From a virus (lineage: Duplodnaviria; Caudoviricetes): a DNA stretch of 64,000 nt. The DNA lies in the IMG/VR virus record IMGVR_UViG_3300044694_000082, positions 40,345-104,344 of that record. One strand, written 5' to 3'. The notes beneath the pieces were generated by a model. It saw only the letters and a program-made list of their open reading frames with translations, had not been told where the DNA came from and did not search any database. Shown here one piece after another: positions 11,913 through 22,214 of this stretch (position 1 is the first letter of the stretch; each line of letters begins with the position of its first letter). Both the position numbers and the translations under genes were made by a program.

Positions 11913-12019
11913 GGATCGCCGGAAACTCTGACGGTCGGCGCGCTTGAGCTGACGTCGGCGCACGGTGAGGTCACGTCGGCGCAGGGATATGCGGTCGCGG
12001 CGGGTGGCTCGGCGGGTCA

Positions 12020-12478
12020 TCAGTCCTCCGTGGTCTCGTACAGGGCAACGGTCTGCCCCAGGTCGGTCATGATGCGGGTCAGGGTGACGCGCTCACCCGC
12101 GAGGTTCGTGTCGTCCCAGCGCCAGACCATCCAGCCCCGGGCCAGGGCCCATGCGGTCCCCGCGTTGATGTGCTCGGTGCTGCGGTAGGTGGTGCTGCGC
12201 CAGCGCTGAGCCGGAACCGAGCCCAGCAGGCGAAGGCCAGCGGTGTCGGCGAGTTCCACGCGGAAGCGCAGGCCGGTGGCCACGTGGTGGTAGGTGATCC
12301 CCTTTGTGGCGCGAGCCACGGCCATGCCCACCTTCACGGCCTCCCGTTCCGTGGTGCCCGGGACTGTCTCCTTCACTGCGGAGGCCACGGCCACGACGAC
12401 CTGAGGGCCGTACAGCAGTTCCGGGGTGGTGGTGCGCGTGCCGTCGGGGCGGGTGATGTGCAGAACGAAAGCGAACAT
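12020..12478 (-). CDS. Hypothetical protein, paralog family C
   Basis: SAS RBS; HVATGLRFRV motif. Confidence 0.7.
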   Translation of the reverse strand: MFAFVLHITRPDGTRTTTPELLYGPQVVVAVASAVKETVPGTTEREAVKVGMAVARATKGITYHHVATGLRFRVELADTAGLRLLGSVPAQRWRSTTYRSTEHINAGTAWALARGWMVWRWDDTNLAGERVTLTRIMTDLGQTVALYETTED

Positions 12479-12505
12479 GACGGGCCTTCCTTGTCGGGTG
12501 GTGCG

Positions 12506-12964
12506 TGTTCCGACCTGTTCCGACCCCCGGAACAGGCCACGGCCAGCGAAGGTAACGAACCGATAACGCGTTACCGTTTCGTGATGTTCAAGGTCACGGT
12601 TAGGTCACGGCCAGGGAGCGGGGCTCGACCTGGCAGGGAGCGGTGAGGGGGTGGTGTTCCGAGGGTGTTCCGACCCTGTTCCGGGTCTGTTCCGAGGGGG
12701 TCGGAACAGTGTTTTCCCAGGTCAGTGGTGCTTTGTTCCGAGTGTTCCGAGTGTTCCGAGTAGGAATACAAGTCTTCTAACGCGAGAGGGGTATGTAACG
12801 GATGTATATAGGTCACAGATACGTAACGCACACGTACGTATATAAGGGAACCTTCGAAATACCCGGAACACTCGGAAACCTCGGAACACTTGCGGTCTGA
12901 CCTGCGAGGATGCTGTTCCGACCCCTCAGAACACGGGTCGGAACACCCCGGAACACTCGGAACA
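12506..12964. repeat. Putative replication origin: mirror-symmetric TGTTCCG iterons around an AT-rich core
   Basis: 19 TGTTCCG/CGGAACA units (2 with one mismatch); 16 are symmetric about ~12811; AT-rich 12761-12860; lies between divergent genes. Confidence 0.75.
12591..12609. promoter_or_regulatory. GTCAC-n6-GTCAC direct-repeat box, copy 1
   Basis: AGGTCACGGTTAGGTCACG, identical at 17876-17894. Confidence 0.6.
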
Positions 12965-13013
12965 GCGGGCCGGAAGCTGGCCGCGTCAACCCGGGTTGTC
13001 CTACCGTCCGGAC

Positions 13014-13529
13014 ATGAGCACGATCATGGGACGGGCCGACATAGAGCGGCTGTGCTGGACGTTGTCCGGCTGGAAGGTCGATCAGCGGAGTGTCGATGAG
13101 TTGCTGGCCGCGATCGACGGCTATGTGACGGGCGCGGGGGCGCCCTGGCCTGAGGGGGGCGCGGGGGGCGCTGTACGGCCCGCAGACGGTGCGGAGCATG
13201 CTCCGGCGACCATTGACCCGGTCGAGGGCGTTTCAGGCCCGCAGGTGGCCGCTCAGCCGCTTCGGATCGTGGTTGAGGTCACCGGGACTGTGACGACGGT
13301 CCCGGCACCTGCCACCCGCCCCAGCCGACCGGTGAAACCACGTGCCTCGCGCGCCGCGACGGTAGTCCCGGCCGATCCGAAGCACTGCACACGATGCAAG
13401 CGGCACCGACCCCTGACGGAGTTCTCCAGGGATTCCAAGGCACTCGACGGCTACCGCTACGCGTGCAAACAATGCGAGAGCGAGCGACGGCGCGCGAGTG
13501 AGGCCGCATGCAGGGAACGGACAGCCTGA
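13014..13529 (+). CDS. Protein with C-terminal CxxC...CxxC Zn finger of the type found on HNH/EndoVII proteins
   Basis: KHCTRCKRHRPLTEFSRD...YACKQC. Confidence 0.65.
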   Translation: MSTIMGRADIERLCWTLSGWKVDQRSVDELLAAIDGYVTGAGAPWPEGGAGGAVRPADGAEHAPATIDPVEGVSGPQVAAQPLRIVVEVTGTVTTVPAPATRPSRPVKPRASRAATVVPADPKHCTRCKRHRPLTEFSRDSKALDGYRYACKQCESERRRASEAACRERTA

Positions 13530-13831
13530 TGGCGATGATCAAGCGGTACGGGGAACTCCCCGCCGTGTTCGTCCCTGACGAGGGGGAAGTGGTCATCGCC
13601 TCCCGCTCACCAGCCGGGCCGTTCCTGCGGGCCGCCATCACCAAAGTGCGGCGCGCCCGTGACGGCTTCATACGGGTCGACTTCGTGTGGCTGGAAGCTG
13701 CGCCGTATCAGCACAACGGCAAGCCGATCAGTCCCGGCGACAAGGGACACGTCTACGTGCGCCGGGATGACCGTGTGCCGCTGATCCGGCGCGTACCGGC
13801 CGAACCTGCCGACCGGCCTAAAGCTGTGTGA
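13529..13831 (+). CDS. Hypothetical protein
   Basis: TGATG coupling. Confidence 0.6.
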   Translation: MAMIKRYGELPAVFVPDEGEVVIASRSPAGPFLRAAITKVRRARDGFIRVDFVWLEAAPYQHNGKPISPGDKGHVYVRRDDRVPLIRRVPAEPADRPKAV

Positions 13832-14201
13832 CGTTCAGGTGGTACGTCACCGTGGGGCCGAATGGCTGTCCCACGGGGAAGGACTTCAGCCCGATGTTGC
13901 GCAGCTTGGGATGGAACGTGGCTGTATACATCAGACGGGTCGTCGATTTGTCGTCGATGATCCAGAGTGCCTTGCTGCCGTAGGGGAACACGTCCAGTCC
14001 CCGGAGCACTTCCATCTCGACCCCGACGAACCCGTCATCGGACGGCGGCCAGAGAATCTCCTCCAGCATGACCACGTCTTGTCTGCGTGCTGGGGTGTGG
14101 TTGTCCAGTTCCACATAGGCGCGGTAGTTCGCGGTCACCGTGGCGCCCGTCGGGTAGACGTAACCGACCGGCCGCATCTCGCGTACCTCACTCATGATCA
14201 T
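13818..14201 (-). CDS. Hypothetical protein
   Basis: GAGAGGA RBS. Confidence 0.6.
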   Translation of the reverse strand: MIMSEVREMRPVGYVYPTGATVTANYRAYVELDNHTPARRQDVVMLEEILWPPSDDGFVGVEMEVLRGLDVFPYGSKALWIIDDKSTTRLMYTATFHPKLRNIGLKSFPVGQPFGPTVTYHLNVTQL

Positions 14202-14277
14202 GTCCTCTCGCTGAGTCCTGTGCAGACAACAGGGCGCACGTTCCCGTCAGGGATCATGCGCCCGATGCGTGCACGGC

Positions 14278-14556
14278 TCAGACGTTCTTACGCGCGGCCT
14301 CCTGTGCGGCCAGCTCATCCGGGGTGATCACCCGGACGCTCGGCCACGCGTTGATCGTCGGCGACGTGGACGTGTCCATGTGCCAGTCCATGAACGTGAC
14401 CTTGCTGCCCTTGGGCACCTCCGCCTCGACGGCGCGGATAACGGCCCGCCTCACTGCGGCCCGATCGTCGCTGTTGACGTTCCACCAGGCGCGTGCCTTG
14501 TGAATCCAGCCCGGTCCCGCAGAACGGTCGGCCGGTCCGGCGTACTCAACGATCAT
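14278..14556 (-). CDS. Hypothetical protein
   Basis: GAGGAG RBS, ATGA coupling. Confidence 0.6.
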   Translation of the reverse strand: MIVEYAGPADRSAGPGWIHKARAWWNVNSDDRAAVRRAVIRAVEAEVPKGSKVTFMDWHMDTSTSPTINAWPSVRVITPDELAAQEAARKNV

Positions 14557-14759
14557 GACTGCGTCTCCTCACTGCCCGCGCACCCTGCGCGCTGGCATGT
14601 CACCGTGATCTTGCGCCCCGACTGGTAGTGCTCGATCGAGAACGGGCCCTTGATCCCGCACCCGGTCCGCGCGTTGCTGATATTCGAGTAGGCCCAGCCG
14701 TCACGGATCTTGTGCGTGGCGCCCTTGCCGGTCACCCGGGCAACGTACTGCGCTTCCAT
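14553..14759 (-). CDS. Small Zn-binding hypothetical protein
   Basis: GGAGAGGGA RBS; H...C...CxxxxC. Confidence 0.6.
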   Translation of the reverse strand: MEAQYVARVTGKGATHKIRDGWAYSNISNARTGCGIKGPFSIEHYQSGRKITVTCQRAGCAGSEETQS

Positions 14760-14806
14760 GATCAGTCCCTCTCCTGGGGTGCATTCTTTCGAGCCTGACA
14801 CGTCAT

Positions 14807-14821
14807 GTCACCCTGTGTGAC
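14807..14821. promoter_or_regulatory. Putative BldD box
   Basis: GTCACCCTGTGTGAC matches nTnACnC(A/T)GnGTnAn at every specified position; intergenic. Confidence 0.55.
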
Positions 14822-14970
14822 GACATGGGGTGTCGCGACGGGGTCGCGATCAACCTAAAGGGTGTTTGTTTCACGGATGAACAAACGATCAACCCTCAAC
14901 CTCAGGTTGAGACTTTGAGGCCGGGCCGGGGCGCAGTGCACGCCCCGGTCCGCCGTGCGTGTGTAGGGGT

Positions 14971-15513
14971 TCAGCCCTTGCACAGAACCTCGGTGTTGAT
15001 CTTGCTGCCCAGGTAGTAGACCTCCACCCAGCATCCATGCTTGTGGGGCAGGGTGCGCAGGTTCACGGAGGCCAGACCGGATACGGGGTCGTTGTAGCCC
15101 ATGCGCAGGCAGTCGCCCTGTGCCGTGTCTGCCACCCAGGCGTTCATGGCCTTGTTGTTGCGGTACGTGTCGTATGTCATGTCCGTGACCAGTTCGGTTG
15201 CCCAGGCGCGGACGCCGCCGTGGCGGGGGGCGTTGGCGCAGATGCTGCGGCGGGTGTTCATGTCGTCGTGGGTGCGGCGACTGCCCTCGGGGGTGGAGTA
15301 CCACAGAGCGGCGGCCTGGGCGCGGGTCCCGGTGGTGAGGCAGGCGCGGTCGTAGGCGGGATCGCCCCGGTGGCCGTGGTGGGCGCAGTCGTAGGCCACG
15401 TGGGCGGGGGCGGGGGGTGTCGATGCGTCGGCGGGGGTGGTGGTGGCGAAGGCCAGGGTGAGCAGTCCCGCGCCGATGCCCGCGAACGCGCGCCGAATGA
15501 CGTTGAGGTTCAT
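14971..15513 (-). CDS. Secreted Cys-rich protein
   Basis: Signal peptide MNLNVIRRAFAGIGAGLLTLAFATTTPADA; SAS RBS. Confidence 0.75.
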   Translation of the reverse strand: MNLNVIRRAFAGIGAGLLTLAFATTTPADASTPPAPAHVAYDCAHHGHRGDPAYDRACLTTGTRAQAAALWYSTPEGSRRTHDDMNTRRSICANAPRHGGVRAWATELVTDMTYDTYRNNKAMNAWVADTAQGDCLRMGYNDPVSGLASVNLRTLPHKHGCWVEVYYLGSKINTEVLCKG

Positions 15514-15640
15514 GTCACTTCCTTGTCTGGTGGTGCAGGGTTACCGCCCAGGTGTTGAGCCGGTACCGGGCGCGCACGGCTATTGACACGAGTCACCCCG
15601 TGCCGGGCCGTGCACCCCGGAGATCGGATCACCCCCTAGG

Positions 15641-16126
15641 TCAGGTGGTGGCGCAGTCCGCGCACCATTTGTCACCACTCGTGTGTCGCGCGCATGCGTA
15701 GCAGTGTGTGTCCGCCACGCATCCCTCCACCGTGCACGGACCGTCATCGGGTGTGCTGGCCTGGTCGTCTGCTTCGGCCGCGATGGTGTCGCAGTCGCAT
15801 CCCTCCCCGTTCAGGTGGCCGCACGGCAGGTTGAGAGACCAGGCCGCGCCGATACAGGGAATGGAGTACATGACATCTCCGGGCGGAGGTGCCAGCTCGG
15901 CCAACCGCACACGCACGGTGTGCGTGGTCGCGCACTCGGCGTCATCGGGGTCATCCATGAACTCGACCAAGTACGCCCCGCAGCACCGCCACACGAGACG
16001 TACGCGCCCGTACAGGCCGGTTTCGGGAACGTGGACCGGACGGCCAGGGTCGGCCCACGCAGGACCGTCCAGCGCACCGAGGGGCGCGCCATCGGTGTCA
16101 CACTGATGAATGCTGTAACTGCCCAT
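15641..16126 (-). CDS. Cys-rich acidic hypothetical protein
   Basis: AAGGGAG RBS, MGSYSIHQC start. Confidence 0.6.
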   Translation of the reverse strand: MGSYSIHQCDTDGAPLGALDGPAWADPGRPVHVPETGLYGRVRLVWRCCGAYLVEFMDDPDDAECATTHTVRVRLAELAPPPGDVMYSIPCIGAAWSLNLPCGHLNGEGCDCDTIAAEADDQASTPDDGPCTVEGCVADTHCYACARHTSGDKWCADCATT

Positions 16127-16224
16127 GTGTGTCTCCCTTACTGAGTAGGCCAGGACCGGGCGGCCTGACGCAACGCACGTGCCCGCAGGGGGCCGTGCGC
16201 TGCGACCACTGCCCGGGGGCCGGG

Positions 16225-16782
16225 TCACTTGCTGGCCTTGCCGTTGCCCTGACGGGCCAGACGCGCGGCCATCCGACGCTGAGCCGTGGCACAGGCCCGG
16301 TAGCGACGCTGAGCAGCCTTGGTGCGCTTGGCAGGCTCACGCTGCACAGCCTCATGGTCGAAACGCTCCCGACCCAGGTTCCCGGACATCGTGTTGGAAA
16401 CCGGCTTGTCGCCCTTGCGTTCACGCGGTCCGGTGATCTTGGTAGCGTCCATGGCGCGGCCACGGACCAGGACCGGACCCCGACCGTGACCGGTCGTCAC
16501 CACCGGGTCGGCAACGCCACCCATGGGCAGCGGCTCTTGCCCAGCGCGGATCTTGGCACCCATGATCTCTCGGCGGAGCATGGCGTCACGGGGGTCACCG
16601 ACGCGGGCCCCCTCGTCCGTGAGCGGAACCTGAGGGCCCTCCCCCAGGTCAATCGGCACCTTGTGCGCGGCCACGAAACCCTTGCCAGTCAGCTTGACCT
16701 TGGGTGCGCGGCACTCCGGGCACGACCCGTCAGGGTTCGGCTTGCGCTTCAGCTTGCCAGTGATCTTGCAGTTCATGTTCAT
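16225..16782 (-). CDS. Basic protein with CxxC...H Zn finger and C-terminal Arg-rich motif (candidate RNA-binding/antitermination factor)
   Basis: SCPECRAP...AAH; C-terminus AKRTKAAQRRYRACATAQRRMAARLAR; GAGGGAG RBS. Confidence 0.7.
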   Translation of the reverse strand: MNMNCKITGKLKRKPNPDGSCPECRAPKVKLTGKGFVAAHKVPIDLGEGPQVPLTDEGARVGDPRDAMLRREIMGAKIRAGQEPLPMGGVADPVVTTGHGRGPVLVRGRAMDATKITGPRERKGDKPVSNTMSGNLGRERFDHEAVQREPAKRTKAAQRRYRACATAQRRMAARLARQGNGKASK

Positions 16783-16807
16783 GATCGTTTCTCCCTCATT
16801 TTCCATT

Positions 16808-17325
16808 GACGGGTCGGGGCGGGGGTTGACGCACTCCGGCCGAAACCGGGGGTTGACACACTCCGCCCCGACGCACTGTCTTGCGACCCGTTCGCTAAGC
16901 GTCCGGGCCTTGCCCCAGGGAACGGCTTGCTAGGCCGCACCCCGGAGAAACGTTGGCGTATCCCTGGACACACTCCCGCGTAGCATGCGCACGACTCCCG
17001 TCGCTGAACGCTTAGCCCTCACGCATCTCACAGGTACCGACGCACTCCGAAAAACCGGGGGTCGGGCCGCTCGACCGTGGGCAGGGGGTCCCGAGCACAG
17101 GACGCACCTGTGCTTACAAGGGATCTTGACTCACTGTTCAGTTAACAATGGGCACGACGTGCCCGCGCATGTCCCGACCAAGGGACGTTCTGTCGACGCA
17201 CTCACCCTCCGGGGAGGGCGGGGTCAACCGCCGTCGGTAAAGCTGGGGGTGACACGTGGTCACCATGGGAACCGGTACAGGACCGGCACCCGTGGCAACC
17301 CCGGTAACCGGGGCGCCCCGTAGGG
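16808..17325 (-). ncRNA. Large structured non-coding RNA or leader with repeated AGUGY/CC internal loops
   Basis: No credible ORF; nested stems with G-U pairs on the minus strand; GNRA (GCAA, GGGA) and UNCG (UACG, UUCG) loops; GACRCACT x6. Confidence 0.65.
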
Positions 17326-17754
17326 CTAGGCAGAGACGCTCTCCCTGTGCGCCCGTTCCATGGTCATCAGGGTCATGGCCAGGTCACGGAGGGACTGGAG
17401 GCCCAAGGCTCCGGCATCGGCCAGCATGCTGGCCAGGGTGTCGGGGGTGGACTCCGACAGGCGCACCATGGCGTCGAGTGCCAGCCTGCGCTGGCGTCCC
17501 GTCATGCCCTCCGCCCCACCCTGGCCCTTGTCGATCATGGACCAGGCTTGCAGGTAGGCGCCCGACTCGGCCAGGGTGGGGACCGGGTACGGGTCACGCC
17601 CCACGCTGGCCACAGCGTCGATCACACGACCCAGCTTGGTGAAGTGATCATCCTCGGACTCGCCCGGGGTGGGGATCATCGACGGAGCCTCATTGATCAC
17701 CATCTTGGGGCGCCTGGCGATCTTGCGCAGCACGGAGCTAGGGCTGGCCTTCAT
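17326..17754 (-). CDS. Hypothetical protein, likely first gene of the early transcript
   Basis: GAGAGGA RBS; TGnTAGACT -10-like element at 17830-17838. Confidence 0.6.
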   Translation of the reverse strand: MKASPSSVLRKIARRPKMVINEAPSMIPTPGESEDDHFTKLGRVIDAVASVGRDPYPVPTLAESGAYLQAWSMIDKGQGGAEGMTGRQRRLALDAMVRLSESTPDTLASMLADAGALGLQSLRDLAMTLMTMERAHRESVSA

Positions 17755-17875
17755 GATCTTGATCCTCTCGGTCGGTCCTGCGGTGGTGGTGCCCGGGGCC
17801 GGTGGCCCCTTCTCTCTTGCTCTGCCCCTAGTCTACACCCTGACGGCCCGATTGGGGCACGGAAAGGGCACGAGG

Positions 17876-17894
17876 AGGTCACGGTTAGGTCACG
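17876..17894. promoter_or_regulatory. GTCAC-n6-GTCAC direct-repeat box, copy 2
   Basis: Identical 19-mer to 12591-12609; about 40 bp upstream of the TAGACT -10. Confidence 0.6.
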
Positions 17895-18086
17895 ACTGGA
17901 TGAGCGGGGTGGTGCTCAGATGAGCGCTCACATGATCGATGAGCCGCTCACCTGAGCGGAGGGGATTAAAGATGCAAATCGGACATCTCTGACAATTACC
18001 TCAAAAGCGTACAAATCGGGCGGGTCGGTACCGTGAGAAATATATGGGTCAGTACAACCTATAGCGATCCCGACAAATGCCACATA

Positions 18087-18284
18087 TCACCCCGGCCCCC
18101 TCCGGTGCTTCCCGCCCACCTCGATCACCACGTGCGGACACCCCGGACACGAGTACAGCCGCTGCGTGCCGATCCACCGCCAGCCCAGCCACCACAGCTC
18201 CTTGTAGCCCCCAGGACCGGGCTCGGGCAGCAGGACACCACACCGTCTGCAGTGAGGCCCCTCAGGGCCGCTGTGGCCGCTCAT
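18087..18284 (-). CDS. Small Zn-finger hypothetical protein
   Basis: CRRC...CPGC. Confidence 0.4.
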   Translation of the reverse strand: MSGHSGPEGPHCRRCGVLLPEPGPGGYKELWWLGWRWIGTQRLYSCPGCPHVVIEVGGKHRRGPG

Positions 18285-18689
18285 GGCCGCCAGGGTAGAG
18301 GATGCCGTCCGGGTCCCGCCGTCGGACGGCCGCTCCAGGGTCACCGGCGCCCGACCCTCCAACAGATCCACCGACACCGGTACATGGCGAGAGCTACGTG
18401 AGGCGCGTGCTGCGCAGTCACGCACGGGACGCCTCTGTCCAGCAGGTTACCGCGAGCATCGTCTGCACACCGTAGAATTCCTGCCCGCGGCGGCTACCGG
18501 AACAGCCGCCGTCCCGCCTTCCGCCCGGCTCCGTGCTCTGGTCGCCGGGCGGTCGTGCGTTTGCGGCCGGGCAACCCCCACGCTTACGGCGGTCCAGCGG
18601 CCGTCATGCCTGCCGGGCCCCACGCTTACGGCGGCGCGAGCCCGTCGCATACGGCGGCTCCTACGGTATTGACGGATCGGGTTATCGCC

Positions 18690-18922
18690 TCATGCCGCTG
18701 CGGGCTCCTCGCCCCACAGCCGCTCCATCAGCACCGAGCCGATGTGGCCGTGTTCGGCAAGGTACTCCAGCGCGTCGCCGTGGATGAAGGTGACGCCTTC
18801 TGGGCGGTTGCGTGCGGGGATGGGGCGGATGTCGACGCCGGTGACGTCGAACCCGCCAGCTGGTAGCCGTACCCGGCACCGTACTGGCCGCAGAACAGGT
18901 CCAGCAGGCGTGGCCGTGACAT
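18690..18922 (-). pseudogene. C5-cytosine DNA methyltransferase remnant
   Basis: MSRPRLLDLFCG..GAGYGY..AG, frameshift, then FDVTGVDI...DALEYLAEHGH; stops before any PC catalytic motif. Confidence 0.8.
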
Positions 18923-19004
18923 GAGAACACCCCCTGCGATCTTTGATTCGATCGTAGGGGGTGCAATGTGTCTTGTAATCCAAGACGCCAGGGCGCGGAG
19001 GTGG

Positions 19005-19283
19005 TTAAGAATCCACGGCCTCGGGCTCGATGTTCAGTACTGCGGCGCTGGGCGAGTGGACGATCAGCCCCTCGGGGTAGCGCACGAGGAACCAGCCCGG
19101 CGGCAGCGCGACCGGATCGCCCTCGGCGTTGTGCACGGTCAGGCGGTCGCCGTGGACGGTGATGAGGTCCTGGCCGATCCACTCACGAAGCTCCGGGGTG
19201 ATGCTGCCCGGCCAGACGCGGACGTCCACGAGCTTGCGGGTGGTCCAGTGCAGGCCGTCGGGGATGTGGGTGGTGGTCGTCAT
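19005..19283 (-). CDS. Hypothetical phage protein
   Basis: SAS-like RBS. Confidence 0.65.
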   Translation of the reverse strand: MTTTTHIPDGLHWTTRKLVDVRVWPGSITPELREWIGQDLITVHGDRLTVHNAEGDPVALPPGWFLVRYPEGLIVHSPSAAVLNIEPEAVDS

Positions 19284-19325
19284 GATGTCGTTCCTTGTCA
19301 TCGAAGACGCCGCTCGGGCGCCCTG

Positions 19326-19628
19326 TTACGAATCAGAGGTGCGGGGTGGGGTGTGGCCTGTCTTTGCGGCGTCCACGGGGATGAACAGGCAGCCGTACAT
19401 GTCGGGGTGATTCTCCCGCAGGTGCGCCTGCTTCTGCGCCTGGCCGCCGGTGACGACCGGCTCGGTACAACCGGCGGCCCCGCACATGAAGGTACCTGTC
19501 TCCTCGGTCATGGCTGTCTCCTCGGTGCGCAGGGTCAGTTCCTCCAGGCGTGCGGCGAGGTCGCCCTCCCACCGGCTGGGCCACCGGGCCTGGATCATCG
19601 CCGCGGTGGCCCGCAGCTCCTGGCTCAC
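19326..19628 (-). CDS. Hypothetical protein (alternative start 19511)
   Basis: GTG coupled to upstream stop; CxxxxC...H motif. Confidence 0.5.
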   Translation of the reverse strand: MSQELRATAAMIQARWPSRWEGDLAARLEELTLRTEETAMTEETGTFMCGAAGCTEPVVTGGQAQKQAHLRENHPDMYGCLFIPVDAAKTGHTPPRTSDS

Positions 19629-20020
19629 CACGGCTTGCCCTCCGGGTACGGCAGGGCGTGCCAGGTGCCGTCCTCGGCGCGCTGGCGCTGGGTGTAGCGC
19701 TGGCCGTCGTCGTCCCAGCGCAGGAAGCCGCGCCCGTGGTCGCCGTCGTGTCCGGCCCGGATCGCACAGGTCACCGTCTCGATGCCATCCGAGATCGAGG
19801 ATGTGCAGACTGGTGTCCAGCCAGGCGCTCCGAACCGCTTGGTGCACGGCTCGCAGAGGCACAGGCCGTCGTGCCCGTCGTCGAGGGTGCACCAGCAGTC
19901 CCCGGTCTTCCACACGGTGCCGTCGGGGGCGGTGATCTGCGGAGGGGGTTCGGAGGCGCACTCCTCGACGGCTGCGATTCCGCAATACACCTCGGGGGTG
20001 ACGAGAGGTTCCCCGGTCAC
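19625..20020 (-). CDS. Cys/His-rich hypothetical protein
   Basis: Repeated C-x4-GHDG motifs. Confidence 0.6.
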   Translation of the reverse strand: MTGEPLVTPEVYCGIAAVEECASEPPPQITAPDGTVWKTGDCWCTLDDGHDGLCLCEPCTKRFGAPGWTPVCTSSISDGIETVTCAIRAGHDGDHGRGFLRWDDDGQRYTQRQRAEDGTWHALPYPEGKPW

Positions 20021-20283
20021 GGCGTGATCCTGATCGCGGCCAGCTCGACGTCGCGGTGTATCTGGTCGTACAGCTCCTGCAGGCGCTGCATGGCCTTCAT
20101 GTCGGTGCGCTTCAGGGCGTTGCGGGCGGACAGCGGCAGCTCGCTCCAGCACTCGTAACACAGGTACATGTTCTTGCCCTTGACCGCTGTCTCGCAGGCA
20201 GGGCACATCGTGCTCACCATCGGTCGCATCCTTTCGAACAGGCGCCGCAGTAGGTCCGGCAGGTACGGCATGGGCAGCCGCAC
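20017..20283 (-). CDS. Zn-finger hypothetical protein (start uncertain)
   Basis: CPAC...CYECW. Confidence 0.6.
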   Translation of the reverse strand: MRLPMPYLPDLLRRLFERMRPMVSTMCPACETAVKGKNMYLCYECWSELPLSARNALKRTDMKAMQRLQELYDQIHRDVELAAIRITP

Positions 20284-20508
20284 TTGGAACGGGTGAAGTG
20301 TTTGCGCAGCCAGCGCACCGCCCGCTTGCGCCAGGTCGGCCGCTGGACGAGGTGGCGGATGTCGACGGGCCCGTACGACATCCTGCTCACGACATGCCGG
20401 GCGGTTCGTTTTTCGGGAGGCTCTTGCTCTTCCATTTCTGCACCTGCTGGGTGTCGGCTGGTTCTAGGCTGTTCACGTTGTTGCCGATCGAGTCACCGGG
20501 AGAGTCTT

Positions 20509-20682
20509 GTGGTCATCCAGTCCGTGCCGCGCCGTCGGCCGTCCGTCATCGCCGCTGTTGCCACGCCGCTGACGGCTGCTCACACCGTGGAGCGTCAGCC
20601 TGCTGTGCAGCGGGTCCTGGACGGCAAGGAGTCGCCCGGCCGGGAGCCGCGGCGGCCGGTCACTTTCGACTCGGCGATCTGA
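20509..20682 (+). CDS. FxSxx-COOH (FxsA-like) RiPP precursor peptide, 57 aa
   Basis: GGGAGAG RBS + GTG; ...TPLTAA...AVQRVLD...RRPVTFDSAI-stop; TAGGCT -10 at 20465; fills an otherwise empty gap on the counter strand. Confidence 0.7.
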   Translation: MVIQSVPRRRPSVIAAVATPLTAAHTVERQPAVQRVLDGKESPGREPRRPVTFDSAI

Positions 20683-20694
20683 CGCGGCCGGACG

Positions 20695-21081
20695 TCACTC
20701 CCAGACCTCGTAGAACCAGGTGTCGGGGGTGACGTCCACGCCGTGGTTCTTCTTGGCCATGTCGCTCAGGTGGGTCCGCATGACGTCCAGCAGGGTCTTC
20801 ACCTCGGTGTCGTCGAGGGAGAGCCACCACTCGCGCGGCACCGGCCAGCGGTCTTCCAGGCGCCAGCCCGGGTAGTCGCTGTTGCGCCAGCGGAAGCCGA
20901 GCATCTCGTGCTCGGCCAGGTCCCGACGCCACTCTTTGAATCCGGTGAGCCAGCCCAGCTGGCGGTGCACGGTGCGCATCATCCAGCGGCGGGCGGCCTG
21001 GTGGTAGGCGGTGGTGTGCAGCAGCCAGTCGGAGCCGCCCCACTGCCGTCGCAGGCCGCATTCCTCGCAGACGTCATTCAC
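20695..21081 (-). CDS. Hypothetical Trp-rich protein
   Basis: GTGA coupling. Confidence 0.6.
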   Translation of the reverse strand: MNDVCEECGLRRQWGGSDWLLHTTAYHQAARRWMMRTVHRQLGWLTGFKEWRRDLAEHEMLGFRWRNSDYPGWRLEDRWPVPREWWLSLDDTEVKTLLDVMRTHLSDMAKKNHGVDVTPDTWFYEVWE

Positions 21082-21236
21082 GTGTCGTATCCCCGGGGTC
21101 CGGTCCATTCGGTGAAGCGGTTCAGCGGCAGGATCCGGACGTTGCGCTGGCCGGTCCACCGCCACAGGCCGCGGTGGGTGAATCCGTCGCCCGCCCAGTA
21201 CCAGTTGCGTCCCAGGCGGTACATGGGGCTGCTCAC
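21078..21236 (-). CDS. Small hypothetical protein
   Basis: GTGA coupling, GAGGA RBS. Confidence 0.5.
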   Translation of the reverse strand: MSSPMYRLGRNWYWAGDGFTHRGLWRWTGQRNVRILPLNRFTEWTGPRGYDT

Positions 21237-21541
21237 TCTTCCTCGCATTCGTGGTCGTCGATGCTGATGATGTCGCCGTCCTCGGTCATGAGCGTGGGTC
21301 CGTCTTCCTTGGTCCACCAGGCGTCGCCGGATGCCCCGCAGCTTCCGCACTCCCAGCGTCCGGCGATGGAGATGCCGCCGTAGCCGCCCGGGGTGTCGCC
21401 GCGCAGGTGACGGCGTTCGCACTCGTTCTCCTCGGGAACGGTCATGTGCGGGAGTTCGCAGATCTCGACGGGAGTGCTCCTGGTCATCATGTGGTCGATG
21501 TCCTCTTCGGTGAGGTCGGTGTCATCGGGTTCAGTGCTCAT
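21233..21541 (-). CDS. Acidic Zn-ribbon hypothetical protein
   Basis: ATGA coupling; CGSC. Confidence 0.6.
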   Translation of the reverse strand: MSTEPDDTDLTEEDIDHMMTRSTPVEICELPHMTVPEENECERRHLRGDTPGGYGGISIAGRWECGSCGASGDAWWTKEDGPTLMTEDGDIISIDDHECEEE

Positions 21542-21741
21542 ACGGTGATGTGGTGCCATCCGTCGCACAGCTCGCAGGGTTCCTCGGGGACGTGGGTCAT
21601 GGGCCTGTTGACGGCGCCGGGGCGGGCGATGGCGTTGAACGCGAGAGCGCGGCTGGCGAAGCGGTACCCCTTGGAGCACGTCTGCCGCTGGCCGAGGGTG
21701 CGGGCCGGGTAGCGCAGGGCGGGGCGGGGCCGTCGGCTCAC
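21538..21741 (-). CDS. Small Zn-binding hypothetical protein
   Basis: C...CELCDGWH. Confidence 0.55.
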   Translation of the reverse strand: MSRRPRPALRYPARTLGQRQTCSKGYRFASRALAFNAIARPGAVNRPMTHVPEEPCELCDGWHHITV

Positions 21742-22214
21742 AGGAGGATCCTCTCGACGTGGATGCCCAGGTTCTCCGCCAGGCGCATACAGCCGCGGGT
21801 GCCGTAGGAGGCGCCGTAGGGTGCGGCGATCAGGGCCTTCGGCGTGGGGGGCTTGGTGAGCATGCGCCGGTTGCGGCGCGGTCCGGCTCCGGGGCAGTAG
21901 TCCCTCGCCAGTCCCGGGTGGGCGGTGTCGCCGGGCTTCTTGCGGCGCCGGTGTGTGGGCGTGACGGGACACTCGGGTGCGCATTGGTCCCAGTCGGCGG
22001 GCATGGGGTCTGCGATGATGTTCATGGGCAGGCCGTACGTGGTGATCCAGTCATGTACGGCCTGGTCGGCGGAGTACTCACCCGGGCAGGCGCCGTGGCG
22101 GATGATCACGGGGCCGGTGATGTTGAGGATGATGTACTCGGCGAGGTGAGCGATGACGAGGCCGGTGTTCGGGTGGTCGCGGGAGCCGGTGAACGCCAGC
22201 ACGGTGGCGTTCAC
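21738..22214 (-). CDS. SLOG-superfamily (YspA/DUF2493-like) protein
   Basis: FTGSRD, HGAC...AD, AGPRRNRRM and GTRGCM motifs. Confidence 0.8.
   Translation of the reverse strand: MNATVLAFTGSRDHPNTGLVIAHLAEYIILNITGPVIIRHGACPGEYSADQAVHDWITTYGLPMNIIADPMPADWDQCAPECPVTPTHRRRKKPGDTAHPGLARDYCPGAGPRRNRRMLTKPPTPKALIAAPYGASYGTRGCMRLAENLGIHVERILL

Follow-up and report, generated by a model that had tools for sequence, protein, structure and literature searches.

A protein with a putative zinc ribbon and a predicted Arg-rich helix and its boxA-bearing leader RNA in an uncultured actinophage: a candidate analogue of the lambda N/nut system

Processive antitermination by a protein acting together with an RNA site is textbook biology in the lambdoid phages of enterobacteria. 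The lambda N protein follows a design in which an Arg-rich motif is combined with segments that fold on binding, and N also autoregulates at nutL. Repression or timing of a protein's own translation has further precedents in the ribosomal-protein leaders and in T4 RegA and gp32. N, boxA, boxB and boxC are described in PMC2724277; boxA binds NusB/NusE, the mycobacterial boxC binds the KH domains of NusA, and a consensus boxA of the ribosomal RNA (rrn) type is active in E. coli without N (PMC2724277). A role as a chaperone of RNA folding is known for the rrn antitermination complex (PMC8632103). A full-text literature search found no description of protein-plus-RNA processive antitermination in phages of Actinobacteria.

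The locus described here belongs to an uncultured soil actinophage whose IMG/VR record (104,344 bp) is rated complete; the window, i.e., the whole stretch of 64,000 nucleotides that was analysed, comprises bases 40345-104344 of that record. The genome has 66% G+C and codes for a portal protein, an HK97-type capsid protein and ThyX, and no close relative of the phage was present among 50,697 cultured phage records. Window positions 8-30 kb form a leftward array of small genes, as judged by third-position G+C. In this array, the initial annotation had described a basic protein with a CxxC...H motif and an Arg-rich end, with a ribosome-binding site (RBS) almost immediately after the last arm of a large RNA, and this observation as a whole is confirmed. 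The protein has a pI of 10.8 and a net charge of +21 (23 Arg and 16 Lys versus 18 Asp/Glu); its C21-P-E-C24 ... H40 residues, together with C5, are each at least 90% conserved in 15 sequences; and the Arg-rich string quoted as the end of the protein corresponds to residues 151-177, after which eight further residues (QGNGKASK) complete the chain. The final hairpin of the leader ends at about position 16813, approximately 15 nt before the RBS, so that the wording of the initial annotation on this point was fair. A longer open reading frame (ORF) starting at an upstream ATG (16806) is unlikely, because 14 homologues begin at the MNMNCK position (consensus MAVKCK) and the GAGGGAG sequence lies 8 nt upstream of 16782. 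The features of the locus are collected in Table 1.

Table 1. Coordinates of the gene, its leader RNA and the conserved protein segments in the window
Feature	Position	Strand	Basis or remark
Gene, 185-aa basic protein	16225..16782	minus	Open frame, stop codon included; homologues share the start position
Shine-Dalgarno sequence GAGGGAG	16791..16797	minus	8 nt before ATG 16782; read from the sequence
ORF-free leader/intergenic RNA, 543 nt, upstream of the gene	16783..17325	minus	No coding frame with the GC3 signature of the genome
Conserved RNA core of two hairpins, the first nested (loop UAGCAAG), the second with loop GACGCUUAGCGAA	16868..16977	minus	RNAalifold, covariance model R1
Six AGUGY repeats, 5' A at 17202, 17046, 16974, 16877, 16862, 16835	16831..17202	minus	4/6 opposite CC
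rrn-type boxA/boxC-like element UUGUUAACUGAACAGUGAG	17130..17148	minus	15/19 to actinobacterial rrn-leader consensus
N-terminal zinc-ribbon signature, residues 5-40: C5, C21-P-E-C24, H40	16663..16770	minus	At least 90% conservation of all four
Motif TDEGxRVGDPRDAAxRRE, residues 55-72, runs into helix 64-79	16567..16620	minus	Alignments A1/A2
Motif TTGHGRGPxLVRGR, residues 96-109, predicted disordered	16456..16497	minus	R101, P103, L105, G108 invariant; pLDDT <50
Motif GTMxGxLGRERxD, residues 131-142	16357..16392	minus	G137 invariant, R138 at least 90%; in 34 family sequences
Arg-rich C-terminal helix, residues 151-178 (AKRTKAAQRRYRA...ARLARQ)	16249..16332	minus	AlphaFold2 helix and family pattern

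Like lambda N, the protein is small, basic, predicted to be largely disordered and furnished with an Arg-rich helix, and in the window, G001 and G002 its gene stands right after boxA and phage-specific hairpins in a putative early operon; the order of promoter region, boxA-containing leader and gene mirrors the pL-nutL-N order of lambda. However, no homology to N, in sequence or fold, or to any known RNA-binding or antitermination family was detected, the Arg-rich helix is C-terminal here and N-terminal in N, and a putative N-terminal zinc ribbon sets the present protein apart, which by its sequence lies outside the N family and would be a non-homologous analogue of N if the model holds. The RNA partners differ as well: the leaders here are multi-module RNAs of 0.5-1.0 kb in which no boxB-type hairpin was identified, compared with the 15-nt boxB, there is a single site in this genome in place of nutL and nutR, and the host is an actinobacterium. 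The phage leaders resemble the signal of the rrn leaders (rrnTAC, with NusA/B/E/G, SuhB and S4) in copying the actinobacterial boxA/boxC stretch, but here that stretch stands on a phage mRNA beside a phage-specific structured RNA and a protein gene, and no S4 or SuhB homologue accompanies it. HK022 put is likewise a folded leader RNA at the head of a phage operon; however, put needs neither a protein nor boxA, whereas the RNA described here was in every case accompanied by a specific protein gene. The pairing of an Arg-rich helix protein with a large multi-site structured RNA recalls HIV Rev and its response element as an analogy of design only, since Rev serves eukaryotic nuclear export and is unrelated in sequence and host. 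Finally, lambda Q is a phage protein with a zinc-binding element that modifies RNA polymerase for read-through, as is proposed here, but the loading of Q takes place at a DNA site, in a complex paused close to the promoter, and no homology to it was detected.

A search among 5.8 billion proteins returned 15 homologues of the protein (E 1e-28 to 1e-56, 43-65% identity), all of them unnamed and nearly all from assembled sequencing runs, and a profile search of 1.84 billion representatives returned 53 family representatives at E<=1e-3, which are clusters at 50% identity, all metagenomic, and include longer forms of 250-560 aa in which a domain is inserted or the zinc ribbon is duplicated. The gene is therefore real rather than a chance ORF, and to judge from these matches it belongs to a real protein family that is undescribed and unannotated. 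No known family was found for the protein in Pfam, PHROGs or NCBIfam at E<=0.1, nor was there a Pfam match for 20 longer relatives. A sequence profile search of the PDB with the family gave no match, Foldseek against the PDB gave no fold relative, VIA-align wide gave single-helix matches only (Z<4), and a search of the ESM Atlas gave no relative (best score 0.81). Furthermore, tblastn with three members found none of the family in the 50,697 cultured phage records, direct searches of viral, metagenome and genome collections with the protein or its alignments returned nothing, and two degenerate DNA patterns for conserved peptides yielded chance matches only in IMG/VR.

AlphaFold2, supplied with an alignment of 27 sequences, predicts a mostly disordered protein with an Arg-rich helix. 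The C-terminal helix spans residues 155-181 (pLDDT 91-97) and carries 9 Arg, and a second helix spans residues 64-79; residues ~90-150 have no confident structure despite their invariant motifs, with pLDDT <50 at 91-103. Across the family the C-terminal helix follows the pattern [ST]-x-x-Q-x-R-x-[YWF]-[RW], in which an aromatic residue is kept inside the basic helix, presumably in a manner resembling Trp18 of N, although this is a lead only. The zinc-ribbon segment (ligands C5, C21-x-x-C24 and H40) is modelled at a pLDDT of ~84 as a predicted ribbon without a fold match, and CPxC...H is carried by 48 of the 64 family sequences. The N-terminal ribbon is missing in the G003 member (L112:3172-3909, minus strand) and likewise in P0026 and P0034; the conserved part of the family can therefore do without it.

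The leader lies between the gene and an upstream gene (17326-17754) and folds with a minimum free energy (MFE) of -255 kcal/mol (z -2.0). Its core, ~110 nt in length, can be aligned across 4 genomes and is predicted to contain 18 base pairs, 9 of them with compensatory changes (RNAalifold, 4 sequences), and the covariance model R1 built on it has exactly one match per genome in G000 (the window genome), G001, G003 and G007. Rfam models run on window positions 12000-22000 gave only a chance miRNA match. The sequence GAGTGYGTC occurs five times within 16828-17203, always on the minus strand, and once elsewhere in the 104-kb genome, and the AGUGY copies that face CC across a helix do so in the MFE fold or a local fold. 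The initial annotation had taken these AGUGY/CC modules for the binding site of the protein, which is doubtful, because the exact module is specific to the window and absent from the relatives, which keep the two-hairpin core and a looser GUGYG instead. GUGYG is enriched on the sense strand only in all five leaders studied (Poisson P down to 1e-10), and CACAC is nearly absent. Because of this strand bias and the compensatory pairs in the core, the leaders are considered to act as RNA and not as DNA sites. A terminator-like hairpin followed by U5 (17060-17076, minus strand) was also considered and is better read as an AGUGY/CC module (CCGAC-CC-CCGG UUUU UCGG-AGUGC-GUCGG), because the U-run can equally be its loop.

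These observations bear directly on the possibility, a very improbable one, that the repeats are DNA sites such as operators or iterons and that the protein is a DNA-binding regulator of the control region. The direct repeats GGAGTGYGTCAAC do contain TTGAC on the opposite strand, and the control region holds other repeated boxes, with CCGGTTCACGCT boxes in the relatives. However, the repeats are spaced irregularly, at 15-156 bp, and all of them point the same way; they form part of helices that show compensatory changes, and their sequence is not kept in the relatives even though the GU bias of the sense strand is. Stoperator-like or iteron-like DNA sites were rejected on this strand bias, spacing, helix context and lack of conservation. 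Two other sequence elements of the gaps were noted. The leaders L111, L112 and L113 of the relatives share the palindrome GATCTTGGA-n-TCAAGATC, of which the window has only a partial copy (GTCAAGATCCCTTG, ~17110-17125). The box CCGGTTCACGCT(C/T)NGT is present twice in G002 (L125:630-700), upstream of promoter-like hexamers and beside a GntR-like gene, and also in the 5' part of the gaps of G001 and G007 (leaders L111 and L113); the CCGGTTCACGCT boxes may be operator sites, which would suggest that the gaps contain a promoter of their own.

Related genomes were reached by way of the portal protein, and their records were then searched with the family profile. Homologues were found in G001 (111.5 kb), G003 and G007, and each of these genes stands behind a gap of 700-1040 nt without ORFs. 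In the complete relative G002 the protein profile gave no match at first; however, R1 matched there with an E of 4e-4 across the genomes and 1e-5 on the locus alone, and just downstream of the match is an ORF of 322-347 aa, with a likely start at L125:1811, ~210 nt beyond. This ORF retains GSLRERGDRE, AKRTKASKRRHRARK and VDTGSAKGDPREAELRRR, the last of which is a still recognisable form of the TDEGxRVGDPRDAAxRRE motif, and hhalign relates it to the family with a probability of 94% (E 1e-7). The neighbourhood of the G002 cassette is different: the cassette comes after a GntR-like gene and two TAnACT hexamers and heads a long operon. The RNA and the gene have thus remained linked despite relocation and strong divergence. 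The initial annotation had proposed co-occurrence across phages as a check, and the outcome is positive in a small sample: in all five genomes that make up the linkage sample (the window, G001, G002, G003 and G007) the two are adjacent, the gene standing directly downstream of an ORF-free leader of 0.5-1.0 kb with the two-hairpin core and GUGYG. No core RNA lacking the gene was detected, either with R1 on the related genomes or in a pattern scan of IMG/VR, which recovered G003 and G007 only. A profile search with the upstream gene recovered only four records, all of them already known from the other searches. By this linkage, the existence of a protein-RNA pair is well supported.

Adjacency of this kind would also be shown by a plain 5'-UTR, and this counts against an N-like reading. 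It is conceivable, though unlikely, that the leader is autoregulatory only, i.e., that the protein acts at its own 5'-UTR, where its binding would repress or time translation, has some other main job, such as binding other nucleic acids, and leaves the polymerase unchanged. RNA and gene diverge together, with the RNA invariably lying immediately upstream, the last GU-rich double hairpin is only ~15 nt away from the RBS, and N itself combines antitermination with autoregulation, so that the two readings are not exclusive. However, a leader of 0.5-1.0 kb with a host rrn boxA far exceeds the needs of an operator, the distance from the core to the start codon is variable (40-210 nt), and the RBS is unpaired, and thus not sequestered, in the MFE fold.

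In the 104-kb genome, no other stretch matches as well as the boxA-like copy in the window, and only one such site is present. When a pattern taken from the leaders of the relatives (TTGAGAACTNNANAGNGTG) was searched, more than 120 loci matched, almost all from Actinomycetota, and more than 100 of the Actinomycetota loci gave the consensus GCGUCCGUUCCUUGAGAACUCAACAGYGUGCC. In five Streptomyces/Kitasatospora loci this stretch lies 77-180 nt upstream of the 16S rRNA. Identity to a Streptomyces rrn leader is 17/17 in G001 and 19/20 in G002, and no clear copy of boxA was found in the leaders of G003 and G007, which also counts against an N-like reading. On these sequence matches, the leader RNA appears as a copy of the host rRNA antitermination signal in at least three of the five genomes.

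The same stretch of the rrn leader was present in 42 cultured phage records, 40 of which are Streptomyces phages (for example, Joe, Endor1, Saftant, Amela, Alsaber, GiJojo and phiScoe45), and in all but 3 of the 25 cultured-phage matches listed it falls under no annotated feature. In phiScoe45 (OQ672749.1, right end, L304:200-700), boxA comes after three tandem promoters of the TTGACA/TAGAGT type and before ordinary small genes, and the region looks as if the complete rrn arrangement of promoters and leader had been copied; downstream are two very small Arg-rich ORFs of 47 and 48 aa (pI 11.7 and 10.4). The core RNA is absent from phiScoe45 and GiJojo, the two boxA phages that were examined for it. 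Because boxA leaders occur in cultured phages that lack the family protein, read-through based on boxA would need no such protein. The element that accompanies the protein is the additional, phage-specific RNA.

For this reason, boxA alone may be sufficient, given the ~40 Streptomyces phages with an rrn-type boxA and no family protein, and this is a further point against an N-like reading. The corresponding alternative holds that the RNA alone antiterminates, through the host rrn complex at boxA or in the manner of HK022 put, and that the protein merely happens to be encoded by the first early gene and serves some unrelated purpose, for example host take-over or the binding of DNA or the nucleoid. 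It is improbable, to about the same degree as autoregulation on its own. None of the 42 cultured phage records contains a family member by tblastn with three members, the consensus rrn boxA functions in E. coli when N is absent (PMC2724277), and a net charge as high as that of the protein suits DNA binding equally well. However, this explanation leaves unaccounted for the additional 300-900 nt of structured, covarying RNA, which is linked only to this gene in 5/5 genomes, even in the relocated cassette of G002, and the core of which was found without the gene neither in the related genomes nor in the IMG/VR scan.

A further alternative is a stable ribonucleoprotein with another function: the leader would, for example, be processed into a non-coding RNA that acts on host ribosome biogenesis, RNA decay or defence, and boxA would serve only the transcription and folding of a long RNA. 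The large size of the RNA (0.5-1.0 kb) and its repeated modules, which could load several copies of the protein, are in keeping with such a particle, as is the chaperone activity of the rrn antitermination complex in RNA folding (PMC8632103). The explanation is nevertheless quite unlikely, as there is no match to an Rfam family and no sign of processing sites, and only ~110 nt of the leader are conserved enough to model.

The best single reading, although a tentative one that is somewhat short of even, is that the gene encodes a phage-specific RNA-binding cofactor for its own leader RNA, acting in the manner of lambda N at nutL. It is favoured because the RNA core and the gene are adjacent in 5/5 genomes, including the diverged and relocated G002, because the leaders match the host rrn boxA (17/17, 19/20 and 15/19), and because a small, disordered protein of pI 10.8 with invariant motifs and an Arg-rich helix corresponds to the design of lambda N. 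Of the N-like RNA/protein pair put forward in the initial annotation, the adjacency, the rrn-type boxA and the basic, disordered, Arg-rich protein have thus held up, but homology to N and the exact module have not. By analogy, host RNA polymerase would transcribe the leftward early operon and would first make the 0.5-kb folded leader, the rrn-type boxA/boxC element of which may recruit host NusB/NusE and NusA. The Arg-rich C-terminal helix would then dock the protein on the phage-specific RNA, at either the two-hairpin core or the GU-rich modules, and the conserved disordered motifs could contact the elongation complex. The polymerase modified in this way would resist termination, probably of the Rho-dependent kind, through the downstream early genes; binding to the leader could also feed back on translation, as with N at nutL. 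In this scheme the gene with its family and motifs, the covarying RNA, the boxA homology and the adjacency in five genomes are observed, whereas RNA binding, contact with polymerase or Nus factors and antitermination are inferred. A terminator scan, which is little informative, showed no strong intrinsic terminators downstream of the gene.

A wider proposal, held with less confidence, is that a system like N/nut arose independently in actinophages. In it, a zinc-ribbon protein, disordered in its body and Arg-rich in its C-terminal helix, would act on a multi-module leader of 0.5-1.0 kb with a copy of the host rrn boxA, possibly loaded in multiple copies, as a phage-specific version of the ribosomal antitermination complex. 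If this is true, the problem that N solves has been met by an unrelated family together with a far larger RNA, through borrowing of the rRNA signal of the host, and the locus would provide a second, independent model of RNA-protein complexes that reprogram RNA polymerase, an entry point into the biology of Nus and Rho in Streptomyces and mycobacteria, and a name for a family of 53 protein clusters that is presently without annotation. The RNA half of the proposal is testable now in the ~40 cultured Streptomyces phages with an unannotated rrn-type boxA, among which phiScoe45, with its rrn-like tandem promoters, is the sole one described in detail.

Two neighbouring genes were noted in addition. 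The gene of the basic protein is adjoined downstream by a Cys-rich gene of 162 aa (15641..16129, minus strand, from ATG 16129), the LPCGHLNGEGCDC motif of which is fused to the C-terminus of the family member P0037 (529 aa); the two share LPCGHL(N/A)GEGC, at residues 499-528 of P0037, with a pairwise E of 9e-7. In the relatives, a CGxxxxxGCDxxxCD gene occupies the position of the Cys-rich gene, and there are hints of a functional link or fusion between the Cys-rich gene and the basic protein. Also conserved near the cassette, in the window (14971-15513, minus strand), G003 (L112:1714-2142, minus strand) and G002 (L119:3770-4189, plus strand), is a protein that looks secreted, having a signal peptide and a number of Cys residues.
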